Below are positions 16,466 through 34,391 of a DNA stretch of 64,000 bases, piece by piece. The notes under the pieces are model-generated. The model saw only the letters and a program-made list of their open reading frames with translations, ran no database searches and was not told where the DNA came from. A program made the position numbers and the translations under genes. The DNA is from a virus (taxonomy: Duplodnaviria; Caudoviricetes), in the IMG/VR virus record IMGVR_UViG_3300038679_000357, positions 1 to 64,000 of that record; one strand, 5' to 3'. The stretch's first letter is position 1; every line of letters begins with the position of its first letter.

Positions 16466-17043
16466 GTTCGTTCATCCTCTCGTTGTGAAACAGACGCCAT
16501 CATCTTTTTAGGTGATATTGGTACAACAACCTGCAATCATCCACAATTATACAACAAACCGTCATTGACTCACACACAAATCAGAATATAATATAATTGT
16601 CAGTTCTACAAACCAACTAAAAAGAGGAACCAAAAAAAAATGAAAGCAGCAATGATCCTTTTATTGGTGATAGTTTGCCACGGACAAGATCTCACCATTA
16701 AACTGGACAGACTGTTTTCGGTAAAAGCTGGTTTTGGACTATCCTACGTGAAATTCGACATCCCAGATGAATACGCAAAGATGGAAGAATTTTCTAATGG
16801 GAAAAATGAACCGTCGGGGATTGCTTTCACTCCAAAAATAGGGTTGTGGATTGAACCCGGCTACAATTTATCTGCTGGAATTTCCGTTTCAAAAAAACTA
16901 CCTGCTGGCTCTAACTGGCATGGCGGCATATCAGATTACTCTCAATATCCAGATGAACTAGCCTTCACCTATACCAAAATCACAGAGTTTGGTTCAACAC
17001 TGGATCTCGACATCAACTACACAATGCTTCCGCAAATATTTTA

Positions 17044-28082: not shown

Positions 28083-28670
28083 TTATTTTCTACTTCTACA
28101 AAAAGTCCCCTGTTGGCTATTGCACTGCGGACAAAGTAACCGCAAATTTTCCATTCGATAATCTGTACTGATGCCGTTAATATGATCAAGAACCATCACC
28201 AGTGGTTTTCCACGCCATTCCGGTCCCTGTTTACATAAACAGCACTCATTTTTTACGATCCCATTCTTCAATAGATACCTCTTCGCAGTTCCTCTGTGTG
28301 CTTTTGATTCCACACAAAAGATACTTTCCAAAGGAAGAGATGGACGACGACCGCGACCGCAAGATTTTCCCTTCATATGAGAAAGGTCGACATTGTGCCT
28401 TGACACATATGAACGAACTGTATCATAATTACCAGGACGAATCGAAAGCCCGACTTTAAGTAATGCATCAGATATCGTCTCGGAATTCTTGATAGCATCC
28501 ATCATCTGGGCGTCGGTCCATTTCTTTTTTCGGAATGATTTTGGGGCGGTTTTTAACCCATACTTATCAAGCCAAAATCTAACTGTGGTTGGTGACTTTC
28601 CAAGTTTAGCCGATATTTGACGGATCGAAAGTCCATCGCTGATCAGTTCTTCAAGACAGCTCTTTTCCAT
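28083..28670 (-). CDS. HNH homing endonuclease with N-terminal HTH
   Basis: CCLC..LDHING..DYRMENLRLLCPQCN. Confidence 0.85.
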   Translation of the reverse strand: MEKSCLEELISDGLSIRQISAKLGKSPTTVRFWLDKYGLKTAPKSFRKKKWTDAQMMDAIKNSETISDALLKVGLSIRPGNYDTVRSYVSRHNVDLSHMKGKSCGRGRRPSLPLESIFCVESKAHRGTAKRYLLKNGIVKNECCLCKQGPEWRGKPLVMVLDHINGISTDYRMENLRLLCPQCNSQQGTFCRSRK

Positions 28671-28769: not shown

Positions 28770-28855
28770 TGGTACAGTCGGGGGGACTCGAACCCCCACC
28801 CCTTGCGGGACCAACCCCTCAAATTGGCGTGTTTGCCCAATTACACCACGACTGC
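28770..28855 (-). tRNA. tRNA-Leu(GAG)
   Basis: CCAAT-TTGAGGG-GTTGG. Confidence 0.95.
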
Positions 28856-28866
28856 ATTCTGAAAAT

Positions 28867-28950
28867 TGGTACCCGGAACAGGATTTGAACCTGCACGTCA
28901 AAGACACCAGATCCTAAGTCTGGCGCGGCTGCCAATTACGCCATCCGGGC
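28867..28950 (-). tRNA. tRNA-Leu(TAG)
   Basis: CCAGA-CTTAGGA-TCTGG. Confidence 0.95.
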
Positions 28951-28957
28951 ATCGAAA

Positions 28958-29037
28958 TGGTTGCTGCAGCAGGAATCGAACCTACTTTCCGACAGGGCAT
29001 GCGACCTGCCACGATCTCCGACCGTCCTACAGCAGCC
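28958..29037 (-). ncRNA. tRNA-like RNA with 8-nt anticodon loop
   Basis: GGCAGG-TCGCATGC-CCTGTC, canonical T arm, CCA. Confidence 0.65.
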
Positions 29038-29092
29038 ATACGGACGCAGCGCTACGTTACCGCATGGCATTATGTGGCTTTCGCCACGTAAA

Positions 29093-29187
29093 TGGTCCGT
29101 CAGGTGGGACTTGAACCCACATCAACCCCTTAGCCGGGGACATCCTTACCGTGTTAAAACACGGAATTTCCATTAGACGACTGACGA
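29093..29187 (-). ncRNA. tRNA-like RNA with hairpin inserted in the D loop
   Basis: GTCTAATGG[AAATT-CCGTGT-TTTA-ACACGG]TAAGGAT; loop CGGCTAA; T arm and CCA intact. Confidence 0.75.
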
Positions 29188-29188
29188 A

Positions 29189-29264
29189 TGGTGGCTCCAG
29201 CGGGAATCGGACCCGCGACCCACGCCTTAAAAGGGCGTTGCTCTACCAACTGAGCTACGGAACC
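29189..29264 (-). tRNA. tRNA-Lys(TTT)
   Basis: ACGCC-CTTTTAA-GGCGT. Confidence 0.95.
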
Positions 29265-29530
29265 GATACTTTTTCGTTAACATAAGTTAACAAATGCATG
29301 ATAGATGTTTAGTCCATCAAGGGGGTATCTCCCAAAGAAAGTTGCTGCGAACAGCAACTTTCGCATGGCTTGGTGGTCGTTTCGGTATGCCTTCTGGATA
29401 CTGAGAAACAAACCACTCAAACTCTAGTTGACAGTGATTGTCGGAAAACCGATGCAATATATCAACCATAATCTCTCAAATTATAGAGCCAATCTGCATG
29501 AAATTCAAGAACATAGAAAGATAAATCAAA
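29263..29530 (-). repeat. ~270 bp direct repeat, copy 1 (promoter, 50-aa ORF 29469-29317, hairpins)
   Basis: Near-identical to 33131-33408. Confidence 0.9.
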
Positions 29531-29621
29531 AATTCTTCAACAGTTAAATAGCCTTGAATGCTATCAAATTTGCAACTATAATATTGTTGGTCTAAAATTT
29601 AAACCACACAATGAGAAAACT

Positions 29622-30038
29622 TTGACAAAAACCATCGATTGTATCAGCTTTGATGAGAAAATTAAGGAAGCTCTTGGAGATCGCTTTAATGAGGCGACCG
29701 CATATAGTTCCTTTTACACCCAAAAGAAGATGAACAGAAATCTTAATATCCATGTCGTCTGTAAGGATTTAAAACCGCCGACGATTGGGACCTTCTTTGC
29801 TTTCAGTACAAGCATCTGTCTTTCTCCCGTAGAACCAGAAAAGATACTTTGGGCATTAGCAGTTCAATTAGTATATGCGTCAACAGTTGAAATGGGACAA
29901 TTTGAATTCAAGAACATCTTTCCAGAAAAAGAGGCGATTGACTACATTCAAGAATACAATCGATGTGGAATCGGAAGAATCACAATTCCTCATACATGGC
30001 TTGTGTGGTATGGCAATCACTCTTCCATATGCCAGTGA
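29622..30038 (+). CDS. hypothetical protein
   Basis: 138 aa ORF, TTG start. Confidence 0.5.
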   Translation: MTKTIDCISFDEKIKEALGDRFNEATAYSSFYTQKKMNRNLNIHVVCKDLKPPTIGTFFAFSTSICLSPVEPEKILWALAVQLVYASTVEMGQFEFKNIFPEKEAIDYIQEYNRCGIGRITIPHTWLVWYGNHSSICQ

Positions 30039-30061
30039 ATTTTACACCATTTTCCACTTCC

Positions 30062-30137
30062 TGGTGTCCCCACCGGGATTCGAACCCGGATTGACGGCGT
30101 GAGAAGCCGTTTTCCTAGCCATTTAGAAGATGAGGAC
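30062..30137 (-). tRNA. tRNA-Glu(CTC)
   Basis: ACGGC-TTCTCAC-GCCGT. Confidence 0.95.
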
Positions 30138-30145
30138 AGAAAAGA

Positions 30146-30253
30146 AACGGGAGACGGGACTCGAACCCGCGAAGCTCGCGCATTGGCAAGCGCCTCGATA
30201 CCAACTTCTCACTAACCACTCTTGTGAAGTGTGCCATATTACACCACTCCCGT
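30146..30253 (-). ncRNA. tRNA-Gly(GCC)-like RNA with ~30 nt insert after the D arm
   Basis: ACGGGAG/CTCCCGT, D arm, TTGCCAA loop, T arm; no encoded CCA. Confidence 0.65.
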
Positions 30254-30257
30254 TTCC

Positions 30258-30334
30258 TGGTGTCCCCGCCGGGGCTCGAACCCGGATTGGCGGCTTGAAG
30301 GGCCGCCCTCCTGAACCAGTTAGAGGACAGGGAC
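30258..30334 (-). tRNA. tRNA-Glu(TTC), C33
   Basis: GCGGC-CCTTCAA-GCCGC. Confidence 0.9.
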
Positions 30335-30350
30335 AAAAAGAACTTAAAAT

Positions 30351-30425
30351 TGGGTCGCCCAACCGGATTTGAACCGGTGCTAGATGTGCCACAAACATCT
30401 GTGCTACCACTACACCATGAGCAAC
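30351..30425 (-). tRNA. tRNA-His(GTG)
   Basis: GATGT-TTGTGGC-ACATC, G-1/C73. Confidence 0.95.
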
Positions 30426-30502
30426 TGGTGGAACTAGAGAGACTTGAACTCTCGACCCCCTGCGTGCCACGCAGGTGCTCTAGCCAACTGAGCTATAGCC
30501 CC
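30426..30502 (-). tRNA. tRNA-Ala(GGC)
   Basis: G3:U70, CCTGC-GTGGCAC-GCAGG. Confidence 0.95.
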
Positions 30503-30510
30503 ATTAAGAA

Positions 30511-30679
30511 AGCCACCGTTTCCACCGGACGGGGCGACCAATCCCCGCGAGTGGAAACAACGGCAAGAAGAAAATGTCCAGGACCCGTCGATCCTTACCC
30601 CATGATTCCGTATCGCGAATGAGAATGCATGGGACAACTACGATCATCAGCCTACGCGGGCGTAGACCGTAGCAGGACA
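30511..30679 (-). ncRNA. two unassigned structured RNA domains
   Basis: TGTCC/GGACA enclosing CTACG/CGTAG and CCCATG/CATGGG; GTTTCCAC/GTGGAAAC enclosing CGGGG/CCCCG. Confidence 0.5.
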
Positions 30680-30687
30680 AAAATTAT

Positions 30688-30819
30688 TGGTGCCCGCCAG
30701 CCGGATTCCAACCGACCTCAGCACCCGCCGGTGCCTTCGCTTCACTACTCCGTCCATATGCGAAAAGAACGGAGCCGACGTCGAACGAGTGGGTTTTGCA
30801 ATTCCCATTATGCGGGGCA
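30688..30819 (-). ncRNA. tRNA-shaped RNA (132 nt) with long arms
   Basis: Acceptor, TGGG/CCCA D stem, CTCCGTTC/GGACGGAG, variable arm GCACC/GGTGC, T arm, CCA. Confidence 0.7.
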
Positions 30820-30825
30820 TTAAAT

Positions 30826-30974
30826 TGGACCGCGTGGGGAGATTCGAACTCCCGGTACGGGCGTGTCGAGGTCCATGCGCATGGGCGCGGGATCGTTTCC
30901 GTACTTTATGCGGCTCAGCCACTTGGAACCTGCAGGAATGCGCATCCCTACAAGCCTCGCAGCCGCCACGCGGA
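30826..30974 (-). ncRNA. tRNA-shaped RNA (149 nt) with ~50 nt anticodon insert
   Basis: CCGCGTG/CACGCGG, GGGAT/ATCCC, GGGAG-TTCGAAT-CTCCC, CCA. Confidence 0.75.
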
Positions 30975-30976
30975 TT

Positions 30977-31053
30977 TGGTGCGCCCGACAGGAATTGAAC
31001 CTGCAACCTCGTGAGTAAGAGTCACTTGCTCTACCAGATTAAGCTACGGACGC
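30977..31053 (-). tRNA. tRNA-Lys(CTT)
   Basis: GTGA-CTCTTAC-TCAC. Confidence 0.9.
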
Positions 31054-31058
31054 ATGGA

Positions 31059-31163
31059 TGGAGCCGGAAGGGCGTCCCGCCGGACGTGCGTTCCCAACCG
31101 GCATAAAGGGTTCGGTAGGCGTCACGACAGGGGGCGAACCATCTTTGTCGCGAGGCGTACCGA
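31059..31163 (-). ncRNA. unassigned structured RNA ending in CCA
   Basis: TCGGTA/TACCGA, GCGACA/TGTCGT, CCGG/CCGG. Confidence 0.4.
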
Positions 31164-31170
31164 TATTTGT

Positions 31171-31247
31171 TGGTCGGCCCGACTGGATTTGAACCAGCGG
31201 CTTCTACGTCCCGAACGTAGCGCTCTACCAGGCTGAGCCACGAGCCG
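31171..31247 (-). tRNA. tRNA-Pro(CGG)
   Basis: CTACG-TTCGGGA-CGTAG. Confidence 0.95.
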
Positions 31248-31255
31248 ATCGAAAT

Positions 31256-31330
31256 TGGAGCTTCCCGGCAGACTTGAACTGCCCTCTGGGACTTACGAAA
31301 TCCCTGCATCGCCGACAATGCTTGGGAAGC
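31256..31330 (-). tRNA. tRNA-Thr(CGT)
   Basis: GGGAT-TTCGTAA-GTCCC. Confidence 0.9.
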
Positions 31331-31332
31331 AA

Positions 31333-31408
31333 TGGTAGTCCCACCTGGACTCGAACCAGAAGCTAGATGGATCAAAGCCATCTGTGCAAGCCATTACACT
31401 ATGGGACT
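31333..31408 (-). tRNA. tRNA-Gln(TTG)
   Basis: GATGG-CTTTGAT-CCATC. Confidence 0.9.
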
Positions 31409-31422
31409 AGAAATCTGGACCG

Positions 31423-31677
31423 CTACTTGGATTTAAACTTTCCAGGCAGCCAAAAACTTCTGAGGATGCGGTGGGCGCGGAGGAGTACCTTCTCCAGTTC
31501 GCCCTTATTGGTGCGGTCAATCGCGTCGAGGACGCGCTTCTCAGTACGCCACCCGTCGTGCCCCATTCCAGCTCTTTCGGCTATTTCATGCAACAGGTAG
31601 CTGTCACCGGACATAACTGCCGGAAACTCCTTCTCCCTGAGATATTCGGCGGCGATAGCCGCAACCGACTTTTTCAT
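31423..31677 (-). CDS. hypothetical protein
   Basis: 84 aa, AAGGA SD. Confidence 0.6.
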   Translation of the reverse strand: MKKSVAAIAAEYLREKEFPAVMSGDSYLLHEIAERAGMGHDGWRTEKRVLDAIDRTNKGELEKVLLRAHRILRSFWLPGKFKSK

Positions 31678-31779
31678 GGCATTTCCTTGTGATTGATGGA
31701 GCTGACGTGGGCGAAACACTCATTTACCGTAGTGCTGCCAGAGTACCGGCAAATCCATTTTCTATCCTTTATAAAAAAT

Positions 31780-31876
31780 TTCAATCATGACCAACGGCGG
31801 ATTTCCAATGAAGCGCCTGTCCTTCCTCGCCGCCGTACAGCTTTCGCAGTGGACAAGTCCTCGGTCCATGATCGAA
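31780..31876 (-). ncRNA. candidate ~95 nt structured RNA
   Basis: ATCATG-GACC/GGTC-ATGAT closing stem, ACGGCGG/CCGCCGT, GGAC/GTCC. Confidence 0.45.
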
Positions 31877-31954
31877 TGGTGGAACTGACGGGGGTCGAAC
31901 CCGTGACCTACTGGTTGCGGACCAGTCGCTCTAGCCAAACTGAGCTACAGCCCC
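31877..31954 (-). tRNA. tRNA-Ala(CGC), C33
   Basis: ACTGG-TCCGCAA-CCAGT. Confidence 0.9.
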
Positions 31955-31966
31955 ATTATGAGATAT

Positions 31967-32043
31967 TGGTGGAACCTATCGGGTTCGAACCGATGACATT
32001 CTGCTTGCAAAGCAGACGCTCTAGCCAACTGAGCTAAGGCCCC
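31967..32043 (-). tRNA. tRNA-Ala(TGC)
   Basis: TCTGC-TTTGCAA-GCAGA. Confidence 0.95.
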
Positions 32044-32072
32044 ATTGAATATCCAAAATAATTAACAATTGG

Positions 32073-32672
32073 TTATTTTTTGCTTCGATTGAATCTCTTG
32101 CTCTTCCCTTTATTCAAATTTCCATAAGTCTCGGTCAAGCTATGACAATTAGGACATATAAGCTCTATGTTGGAAGGTCTACTGTTTGAACAATCACCAT
32201 CTATATGATGAACTGTAAGTGGAACCTTTTTTGTATGTTCGTTCATCTTATTCCACCCGCATTTTTGGCAACAATTATTATACTTTTCCAACAACCACCT
32301 TCTAACATAATTAGAAACTGCAATTGTGGAATCATTATTCGCGTTGCCACTTTCCTCACCAGAAAGCCATCGATCGATGTACTTCAGATAGCGATAATCG
32401 CAACTGCATTTAGACGAGCAAAAAGTATTTTTTCTTTGTTTATTATCGCCTCCACAATGAAGACATTTGGAAGTCCCCTTCCTTTTCTTCCTGGCGTTGT
32501 TGTAGGAGGCCGAGCATGAAGAATTACAAAATTTTCTTTTCTTTGTATCACTAGGCTTTTCATACCCCTTTACCGTCAAGATTTCGCCACAATACAGACA
32601 AAAACACGGATCGTTATCGTATTTCTCCAAAGCTCTTTTTCTTAGTACACCGATACTGTCTGACATTTTCAA
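32073..32672 (-). CDS. HNH homing endonuclease
   Basis: CQKC..VHHIDG..NIELICPNCHS; N-terminal Cys motifs. Confidence 0.85.
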   Translation of the reverse strand: MKMSDSIGVLRKRALEKYDNDPCFCLYCGEILTVKGYEKPSDTKKRKFCNSSCSASYNNARKKRKGTSKCLHCGGDNKQRKNTFCSSKCSCDYRYLKYIDRWLSGEESGNANNDSTIAVSNYVRRWLLEKYNNCCQKCGWNKMNEHTKKVPLTVHHIDGDCSNSRPSNIELICPNCHSLTETYGNLNKGKSKRFNRSKK

Positions 32673-32746
32673 TCTCCTGAAGTTATTCAGGAGTATTCCG
32701 AAATGTCAACGACAATCCCTTTGTTGATATAGTAGCAATTTCGACT

Positions 32747-32820
32747 TGGAGCGTCCAGCGGGAATCGAACCCGCCTGACCAGCTTGGGAAGCTGGGACAT
32801 TACCACTATGCTATGGACGC
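32747..32820 (-). tRNA. tRNA-Gly(CCC)
   Basis: CCAGC-TTCCCAA-GCTGG. Confidence 0.95.
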
Positions 32821-33030
32821 ACGGCTCCCGGTCGAGCAGGAGCTAATGCCCTTCATCCGACTACGCTCTCGACAGCTTCCGCGCCGGATGAAGAGACTTG
32901 GAGCGTCCGGCGGGAATTGAACCCGCCTATCCACGTTGGCAACGTGGAGCATTACCACTATGCTACGGACGCACGGCTCCCGGTCGAGCAGGAGCTTAAT
33001 ACCCTTCACCGTACTACGCTCTCGACAGCT
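32821..33030 (-). repeat. duplicated ~58 nt leader abutting both Gly tRNAs (32821-32878, 32973-33030)
   Basis: acggctcccggtcgagcaggagct...ctacgctctcgacagctt occurs twice. Confidence 0.85.
32899..32972 (-). tRNA. tRNA-Gly(GCC)
   Basis: CCACG-TTGCCAA-CGTGG. Confidence 0.95.
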
Positions 33031-33130
33031 TACATGCACTGTGTCAATGATACTCGGTAGAGTATCCACACTTTCTACACGTTAGATTCCTCTGCGTTGA
33101 TTGTCAAGTGGTCTCGACATCTTCGGCGTT

Positions 33131-33408
33131 CCGATACTTTTTCGTTAACATAAGTTAACAAATGCATGATAGATGTTTAGTCCATCAAGGGGGTATCTCC
33201 CAAAGAAAGTTGCTGCGAACAGCGACTTTCGCATGGCTTGGTGGTCGTTTCGGTATGCCTTCTGGATACTGAGAAACAACTAGCTGACAGTGATTGTCGG
33301 AAAACCGATGCAATATGTCAACCATAATCTCTCAAATTCATAGAGCCAATCTGCATGAAATTCAAGAACATAGAAAGATAAATCAAAAAATTATTCAACA
33401 GTTAAACA
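33131..33408 (-). repeat. ~270 bp direct repeat, copy 2 (46-aa ORF 33325-33185)
   Basis: Near-identical to 29263-29530. Confidence 0.9.
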
Positions 33409-33466
33409 ACCCTTTCGGGTATCGTTCCGTTTTTACGATCGGGCGTCCATTTGCCCACACTTCGGT

Positions 33467-33542
33467 TGGAGCCCGCGCCCGGAATTGGACCGGGGACCTT
33501 CAACTTACCAAGTTGACGCTCTACCAACTGAGCTACGTGGGC
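33467..33542 (-). tRNA. tRNA-Thr(GGT)
   Basis: TCAAC-TTGGTAA-GTTGA. Confidence 0.95.
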
Positions 33543-33554
33543 ATTAAAAAGAAT

Positions 33555-33721
33555 CCGACCGACCGGCGGGAGTCGAACCCGCAAATAATGCCCGCGTTGG
33601 ACTGCAGACATTTGGACGGTTTTTGCCATGATTCCAAACTACGCAGGATCGCCCTGCGCGGTCATTCCTTGTTAACGGCTTGACCTCGACCGTGTATGCC
33701 ATTTCCACCACGGTCAGTCGG
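33555..33721 (-). ncRNA. tRNA-shaped RNA (167 nt) with four hairpins replacing the anticodon arm
   Basis: 11-bp acceptor CCGACTGACCG/CGGTCGGTCGG, Leu-type D arm, canonical T arm. Confidence 0.8.
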
Positions 33722-33734
33722 CTTCTTTGATTAT

Positions 33735-34391
33735 TTATTCCTTAGACAATTCGACGTTCCAGTACAATCTTGACAAGAACCTTTCCCACTGTTGTGGTAT
33801 TTGGATCGGAGCGATAATCTTCCGAGAGCGCCGACTGTTTCTAATTTCAGTTGAAGTTGGCACATACGGCTTTTTCATCAGCTTCATGCCAGCTTCGTCT
33901 GGGAGCATGTCCTTCTTCTTATCGTTGCAAGAAATACAGGAGAGGACGATGTTCGTCCATTCTGTACGTCCGCCACGACACCTTGGAATGACGTGATCGA
34001 GATTCAAGGTCGTTTCTTCCTCGGTTGCGCCACAGTATTGACACTTATGGCGGTCTCGAATAAAAAGATTTATCCTTGAGAATCTCGCTGGGAGTTTGCC
34101 ATTCTTGCCGTCCAACCGACTACAGGTTGAGGCATGGTTGTAATAACGAAGAGCGATAACATGCGGGACTGGCAGTTCTCCAGAAGCGAGTTTAATCACT
34201 TCCTTTTCAGAGGCAATGCAAAGATCCTTTGCAGCCTGCCAATCTCCGAGCCACTCATCGAACGACCTTGCCTGGTCGTATTCATCGATGACATCAGCTC
34301 TTTCATTATAGAGGAGTTGTACGGCTCTGTGTAGAGAAACGGAATAGACAGCCTGCCGCAAGGCGTCTAACACCAACACTGGATGTTTCAT
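33735..34391 (-). CDS. HNH endonuclease (McrA-like)
   Basis: NLFIRDRHKCQYCG, LDHVIPR, WTNIVLSCISCNDKK. Confidence 0.9.
   Translation of the reverse strand: MKHPVLVLDALRQAVYSVSLHRAVQLLYNERADVIDEYDQARSFDEWLGDWQAAKDLCIASEKEVIKLASGELPVPHVIALRYYNHASTCSRLDGKNGKLPARFSRINLFIRDRHKCQYCGATEEETTLNLDHVIPRCRGGRTEWTNIVLSCISCNDKKKDMLPDEAGMKLMKKPYVPTSTEIRNSRRSRKIIAPIQIPQQWERFLSRLYWNVELSKE

Follow-up and report, generated by a model that had tools for sequence, protein, structure and literature searches.

A duplicated cassette with a candidate promoter and structured leader in the tRNA island of a giant phage

The repeat and its setting

The window analysed here comprises positions 1 to 64,000 of a virus record of 255,142 bp (IMGVR_UViG_3300038679_000357) from a giant uncultured phage. 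It contains every one of the genome's 46 tRNA genes, of which 45 are on the minus strand; free-standing HNH endonuclease genes and ORFans are scattered among them. Within this island a cassette occurs twice in the same orientation, and carries a sigma-70-type promoter sequence, a small open reading frame (ORF) and, inside the ORF, a terminator-like UUCG hairpin. Repeat search, MAFFT alignment and blastn revealed the two copies as direct repeats with 93% identity counting gaps (blastn E 5e-101), at a distance of 3,868 bp. Their borders are sharp and their flanks are unrelated. The 3' end of copy 1 coincides with the 5' end of tRNA-Lys(UUU), and that of copy 2 lies 158 nt ahead of tRNA-Gly(GCC). 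An assembly artefact was rejected, since each copy has unique flanks and the copies differ in sequence.

A preliminary description of this DNA had reported a duplicated 270-bp cassette that precedes tRNA sub-arrays. It is indeed a real and discrete direct repeat, of ~285 bp rather than 270 bp, and stands ahead of the sub-arrays beginning with tRNA-Lys(UUU) (copy 1) and tRNA-Gly(GCC) (copy 2); the promoter sequence, the ORFs of 50 and 46 amino acids, the three synonymous changes with the 12-nt indel, and the UUCG hairpin are all present as quoted there. The genome-wide copy count that it had proposed was run by BLAST, nhmmer and covariance model, and gave a copy number of two, with no third copy in the 255 kb.

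The ORFs of the two copies differ by three third-position transitions and the one 12-nt in-frame indel, and by nothing else. Upstream of the ORF there are one more substitution and two 1-nt indels, one of which hits the -10 hexamer; in the alignment of the two copies no difference was seen in the 52 nt after the ORF stop. The copies may well have arisen by recent duplication, or be kept alike by gene conversion. Coordinates are collected in Table 1.

Table 1 Features of the two cassette copies and of the segment between them
Feature	Position	Strand	Remarks
Cassette copy 1	29263..29553	-	291 nt; 3' end abuts tRNA-Lys(UUU)
Cassette copy 2	33131..33411	-	281 nt; between tRNA-Thr(GGU) and tRNA-Gly(GCC)
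Sigma-70-type promoter sequence, copy 1	29480..29508	-	TTGAAT-N17-TATAAT
Same promoter, copy 2	33336..33365	-	-10 spoiled by 1-nt insertion (TATGAAT)
ORF, copy 1	29317..29469	-	50 codons, MVDILHRF...WEIPP, UGA stop
ORF, copy 2	33185..33325	-	46 codons, version of the copy 1 ORF
Hairpin H1	29425..29468	-	17 pairs, -14.6 kcal/mol; pairs U and G of the AUG
12 nt unique to copy 1	29412..29423	-	Junction of the shared fold; permits an alternative long hairpin with 29367-29385 in copy 1
UUCG hairpin, copy 1	29337..29362	-	11 bp, -16.0 kcal/mol; A-tract before, UUUGGG after; inside the ORF
UUCG hairpin, copy 2	33205-33230	-	C.A mismatch
GTTAAC-TTAT-GTTAAC hairpin	29274..29293	-	9 nt (29265-29273) before the tRNA-Lys 5' end (29264)
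Divergent promoter sequence, unique flank of copy 1	29554..29582	+	TTGAAT-N17-TATAAT; faces the ORFan at 29622-30038
Segment between the copies	29554..33130	-	3.6 kb; 12 ARAGORN-called tRNA genes, an HNH gene, 2 ORFans
HNH gene in the segment	32073-32672	-	
ORFan in the segment	31423-31719	-	
ORFan in the segment	29622-30038	+	

The arrangement invites the reading that the repeats mainly reflect a 3.6-kb module entering or leaving by homologous recombination, with their regulatory content being secondary. The direct orientation, sharp borders and unrelated flanks fit this, as do the ORFans and the free-standing HNH gene within the bracketed segment, and the promoter-early stem-loop (PeSL) repeats of T4-type phages mediate such shuffling and form mini-circles (PMC2839356). 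However, there are only two copies, about three times as long as PeSLs, no variant genome with or without the module was found, and the bracketed tRNAs complement the remaining tRNA set and do not duplicate it. We therefore consider recombination unlikely to be the main meaning of the repeats.

The preliminary description had also raised the possibility of a small mobile unit, which did not hold up: there are no terminal inverted repeats of at least 6 nt in the terminal 40 nt of the cassette, no target-site duplication was found at it, and it has two copies only. A miniature transposable element or a homing-endonuclease-borne unit would account for the discreteness of the cassette and for the HNH genes (28083-28670 and 32073-32672, both minus strand), one per copy, which lie 460-600 nt downstream with 2-5 tRNAs between. 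Nevertheless, the lack of inverted repeats and target-site duplications largely refutes such an origin, the low copy number does not favour it, and the two HNH proteins are alike in the catalytic motif alone (33% identity over 36 aa), so that it appears highly improbable.

Relatives of the cassette were sought widely. Blastn against 50,697 phage records gave no match, nor did exact-pattern scans of IMG/VR, JGI metagenomes and GTDB genomes. The same result was obtained with nhmmer over 78 loci fetched via the ribonucleotide reductase (RNR) of the phage, and when five large related-RNR records plus 44 loci were searched by BLAST and with covariance model R1; the RNR-bearing contigs are not syntenic relatives and are without tRNA arrays. 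A sequence pattern derived from the neighbouring tRNA-shaped RNA had no match either, the whole tRNA array retrieved only generic tRNA matches by blastn, and no relatives were found for the ORFans neighbouring the cassettes.

Predicted promoter and RNA structure of the cassette

The promoter sequence of copy 1 is preceded by an A/T-rich stretch of 45 nt, and judged by its sequence it is a credible promoter. Near-consensus sites of the form TTGA[ACT][AT]-N16-18-TA[TAG]AAT are found nine times in the 255 kb, and six of the nine are intergenic and directly upstream of a same-strand ORF or tRNA (genome positions 4553, 16565, 29508, 29554, 73908 and 213469). The presence of a few host-type promoters upstream of genes suggests that a small gene set is read by unmodified host RNA polymerase.

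The copy 1 promoter is one of these six. Another is the plus-strand site in the unique flank of copy 1, which sits back-to-back with the copy 1 promoter, 46 bp away, and is predicted to drive the plus-strand ORFan. This ORFan encodes 138 aa with a codon log-odds of 0.13 and is without Pfam, PHROG or phage-record relatives. It points head-on at the minus-strand tRNA array and stops 24 nt short of tRNA-Glu(CUC). Since it would break the leftward reading of the array, transcription would have to restart just where copy 1 stands. We indeed observed an intact TATAAT in copy 1, where the plus-strand gene interrupts upstream transcription, and a damaged -10 in copy 2, which is located downstream of co-oriented tRNAs. 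Just downstream of copy 2 there is a TTGACA-N17-TAACGT sequence (33077-33105, minus strand), possibly a weak substitute promoter for the damaged -10.

The part of the cassette that would be transcribed is unusually structured compared with dinucleotide shuffles (z -5.9 for copy 1 and -4.5 for copy 2). On independent recomputation the z values were -5.5 and -4.0, whereas 45 random genome windows averaged -0.8 (sd 1.2). Owing to several G.U pairs, the fold of the sense strand is more stable than that of the antisense strand (-71 versus -63 kcal/mol). In the fold shared by the two copies, stem P1 closes on hairpin H1. A small hairpin follows, then GAAACGACCACCAAGCC as a single-stranded stretch, then a branched 3' domain that includes the UUCG hairpin, and finally the GTTAAC-TTAT-GTTAAC hairpin. 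Two of the three ORF substitutions keep the H1 pairing (U-A to U-G and U.G to C-G), leaving H1 fully paired in both copies, and the 12-nt indel is tolerated by the shared fold since it falls in a junction. The third change, GTT to GTC in copy 2, creates the C.A mismatch in the UUCG hairpin and lowers its stability from -16.0 to -11.8 kcal/mol. According to these predictions, the UUCG hairpin is a weak-to-moderate intrinsic-terminator-like site.

Searched with Rfam 15 covariance models, the region from 28800 to 33800 yielded only tRNAs at the gathering score or at E <= 1. A T-box or other riboswitch was rejected for want of an Rfam match, and a tRNA-like RNA was rejected because no tRNA-model match lies within the cassette. 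An antisense-target scan of the genome returned matches at chance level only.

These data also bear on a stand-alone small RNA (sRNA) gene in two copies, whose structured product of ~125-140 nt would end at the UUCG terminator while the tRNAs are fed mainly by other transcripts. A promoter, a structured body and a hairpin with a U-tract are the usual anatomy of such a gene, and phage tRNA clusters include stable RNAs of unknown role, such as T4 RNA C/D and the T5 stable RNAs. On the other hand, the full 11-bp stem is followed by a short U-tract only (UUUGGG), the conserved repeat runs 75 nt past the hairpin to the tRNA 5' end, neither Rfam nor the antisense scan offered support, and the tRNAs of copy 1 are without another obvious promoter. 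An sRNA gene is thus rather unlikely, in our view.

Three further observations concern the surroundings of the cassettes. The tRNA-Val(AAC) call by ARAGORN at 29093-29187 (minus strand) has a length of 95 nt, and its score of 28.6 bits with the Rfam tRNA model falls slightly below the gathering score of 29; it is an aberrant or insert-bearing tRNA. A G+C-rich stretch of 470 nt within the array (30503-30976, minus strand) received no tRNA call from ARAGORN or Rfam. Between tRNA-Thr(GGU) and copy 2 (33412-33448, minus strand), a small ACCC-GAAA-GGGU hairpin with a GNRA loop adjoins an ATCGT/ACGAT stem.

The open reading frame within the cassette

The preliminary description had taken the synonymous changes and the in-frame indel as a sign of coding constraint on the ORF. 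For a single pre-chosen frame, three random transitions would all be synonymous in the ORF with p = 0.031, or p ~0.01 once the in-frame indel is included, both values being before correction for six frames and for the ORF having been noticed through being intact. At ~2% divergence the copies are too alike for any selection test, and a test of pair-keeping is equally powerless, as about half of stem transitions keep pairing. The substitution density is 3 in 141 nt within the ORF versus 1 in ~130 nt, plus two indels, outside it; the sequence outside the ORF is conserved as well as the ORF or better. With p ~0.03 uncorrected, two of the three changes equally preserving H1 pairs and flanks no less conserved, coding constraint is not supported.

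Among 5.8 billion cluster representatives and a further 1.84 billion representatives scanned by HMMER, the peptide matched its own paralogue only; it has no Pfam or PHROG match, and peptide-pattern scans of IMG/VR, JGI metagenomes and GTDB genomes and tblastn against GenBank phage records came back empty.

Genes of this phage show a purine-rich Shine-Dalgarno sequence of the AGAGGA type located between -12 and -7, as in the AAGAGGA that precedes the gene at 16640. No such sequence precedes the ORF, which has no more than a GAGAG that ends 3 nt short of its AUG. This start codon begins 11 nt downstream of the -10 hexamer, and the 5' leader is accordingly predicted to measure only ~2-6 nt. The codon-usage log-odds of the ORF is 0.05, compared with 0.21 +/- 0.11 for real genes and -0.02 +/- 0.13 for spurious open frames; it fits spurious frames about as well as real genes and is uninformative. 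The 50-codon ORF is probably an incidental open frame that is not translated. It ends in Pro-Pro-UGA (29317-29322, minus strand), a slow-termination context that is relevant only if the ORF is translated.

The overlap of ORF and hairpin nevertheless recalls the pyrBI leader attenuator of E. coli, in which a leader ORF of ~44-50 codons runs through an intrinsic terminator and a coupled ribosome could prevent termination. In an analogous scheme, a ribosome following RNA polymerase would melt the UUCG terminator, and read-through into the tRNAs would depend on translation. In both copies the ORF likewise spans the terminator-like hairpin (codons 35-43 of 50 in copy 1) and stops 18 nt beyond it, an A-tract lies upstream and U's lie downstream of the hairpin, the copies differ by synonymous changes and an in-frame indel, and the Pro-Pro-UGA end could add a termination pause. 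In pyrBI, however, the ribosome-binding site is functional and there is a UTP-sensitive pause tract, whereas the cassette is without a Shine-Dalgarno sequence, its AUG is predicted to be buried in the -14.6 kcal/mol hairpin behind a 5' untranslated region of ~2-6 nt, and the downstream genes are tRNAs. Moreover, the same ORF precedes different tRNAs, Lys/Val/Leu in copy 1 versus Gly/Gly in copy 2, and the four tRNAs that come next after copy 1 read only ~8 of the 50 codons (a hand count, with genome codon usage not formally compared). The peptide is an orphan, the folds show no antiterminator alternative, the feedback would not be homeostatic, as less translation would give fewer tRNAs, and the statistical support is the uncorrected p ~0.03. 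Such an attenuator is therefore improbable. A more specific version, in which the near-leaderless ORF with its Pro-Pro-UGA end acts as a translation-sensing gate, its ribosomes either melting the UUCG terminator or letting it form, so that the synthesis of phage tRNAs would follow the translation state of the host, seems very unlikely.

Attenuation of the trp/ilv type is not compatible with the cassette. Inspection of the minimum free energy, centroid and consensus folds showed no upstream complement to the 5' strand of the terminator that could form a mutually exclusive antiterminator, and the ORF, with one Gly and two Lys codons, is not enriched for codons of the downstream tRNAs. These two results rule out a trp-type attenuator, and the missing Shine-Dalgarno sequence and the predicted pairing of the AUG also speak against a translatable leader ORF of this type. 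The translation-coupled control suggested in the preliminary description thus fares differently by type: the trp type falls away with the missing antiterminator and codon match, and for the pyrBI type the overlap of ORF and hairpin stands and the initiation signals are lacking.

A promoter-leader reading and known systems

We favour, at somewhat better than even confidence, the reading that the cassette is an internal promoter with a structured leader for tRNA sub-operons, its UUCG hairpin serving as a partial terminator or stabiliser, and that it was recently duplicated or homogenised. In the scheme that we infer for promoter use, RNA ends, terminator efficiency and recombination, the cassette would be the head of an internal transcription unit of the tRNA island. 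Downstream of a host-type (sigma-70-like) promoter, itself preceded by an AT-rich stretch, would come a leader RNA of ~210 nt, with five hairpins, running straight into the tRNA genes, and the promoter of copy 1 would restart leftward transcription past the opposite-strand ORFan. Since the copy 1 repeat ends on the first bases of tRNA-Lys(UUU), RNase P cleavage at this tRNA would release the leader, going by the known function of the enzyme. The UUCG hairpin with its short U-tract is probably a partial terminator or a stabilising structure, and some transcripts may stop there to give a small RNA of ~125-140 nt. Homologous recombination between the direct repeats could delete or circularise the tRNA/HNH/ORFan module.

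Several points weigh against this proposal. No relative carrying the cassette was found, so covariation and conservation support neither the structure nor the promoter, and copies at ~2% divergence are too young to reveal selection. Neither copy has lost the open frame, and within it they differ by synonymous changes and an in-frame indel only, the pattern expected of a real gene. One substitution weakens the UUCG hairpin in copy 2, and a terminator-like hairpin of its own, soon after the promoter, is odd for a plain operon promoter. A regulatory role, which the preliminary description had suggested, is plausible all the same, because the unit is discrete and duplicated and places a credible promoter and a terminator-like hairpin in front of tRNA genes. 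Taken together, the claim for the ORF is unsupported, the repeat is real and a reasonable regulatory cassette, and most likely it is a fairly ordinary regulatory repeat.

If the promoter-leader reading is true, this giant phage runs its 46-tRNA island through internal host-type promoters with structured leaders, and the promoter and leader form a portable unit that is re-used where an opposite-strand gene breaks the operon. The 3.6-kb module that the repeats delimit could also be gained or lost through recombination, and this has a bearing on the way in which phages assemble their tRNA sets. The locus further calls for care in reading such data: where two repeat copies are young, a handful of synonymous differences between them is no proof of a gene.

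Among known systems, phage tRNA clusters with stable small RNAs and internal promoters, such as those of T4 RNA C/D and the T5 tRNA region, provide non-tRNA structured RNAs that are co-transcribed with phage tRNAs and freed by tRNA processing enzymes. Unlike these, the cassette RNA has no sequence or Rfam similarity, is not tRNA-shaped and would lie at the 5' end of its transcript.

A closer likeness is to the PeSL cassettes of T4-type phages (Arbiol et al. 2010, PMC2839356; also PMC4122927), which recombine, shuffling ORFans and forming mini-circles (PMC2839356). Both combine a strong sigma-70-like promoter, preceded by an AT-rich stretch, with stem-loops, and one PeSL subclass has its stem-loop downstream of the -10. 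In both, the repeats share one orientation and lie around ORFans in a plastic region, where they could give rise to deletions or mini-circles. The promoter feature is found in copy 1 and is spoiled at the -10 in copy 2; the terminator stem-loop of PeSLs would have a possible counterpart in the predicted -16 kcal/mol UUCG stem, with a short U-tract. In contrast, PeSLs are ~100 bp long and occur in dozens of copies in hyperplastic regions, whereas here there are only two, of ~285 bp, each predicted to give a long multi-hairpin transcript, in the tRNA island of an unrelated giant phage. By this comparison, copy number and size place the cassette outside the PeSL family, and at best it would work like a PeSL. 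Its novelty appears modest, as a cassette of the promoter/stem-loop kind already known in T4-type phages.

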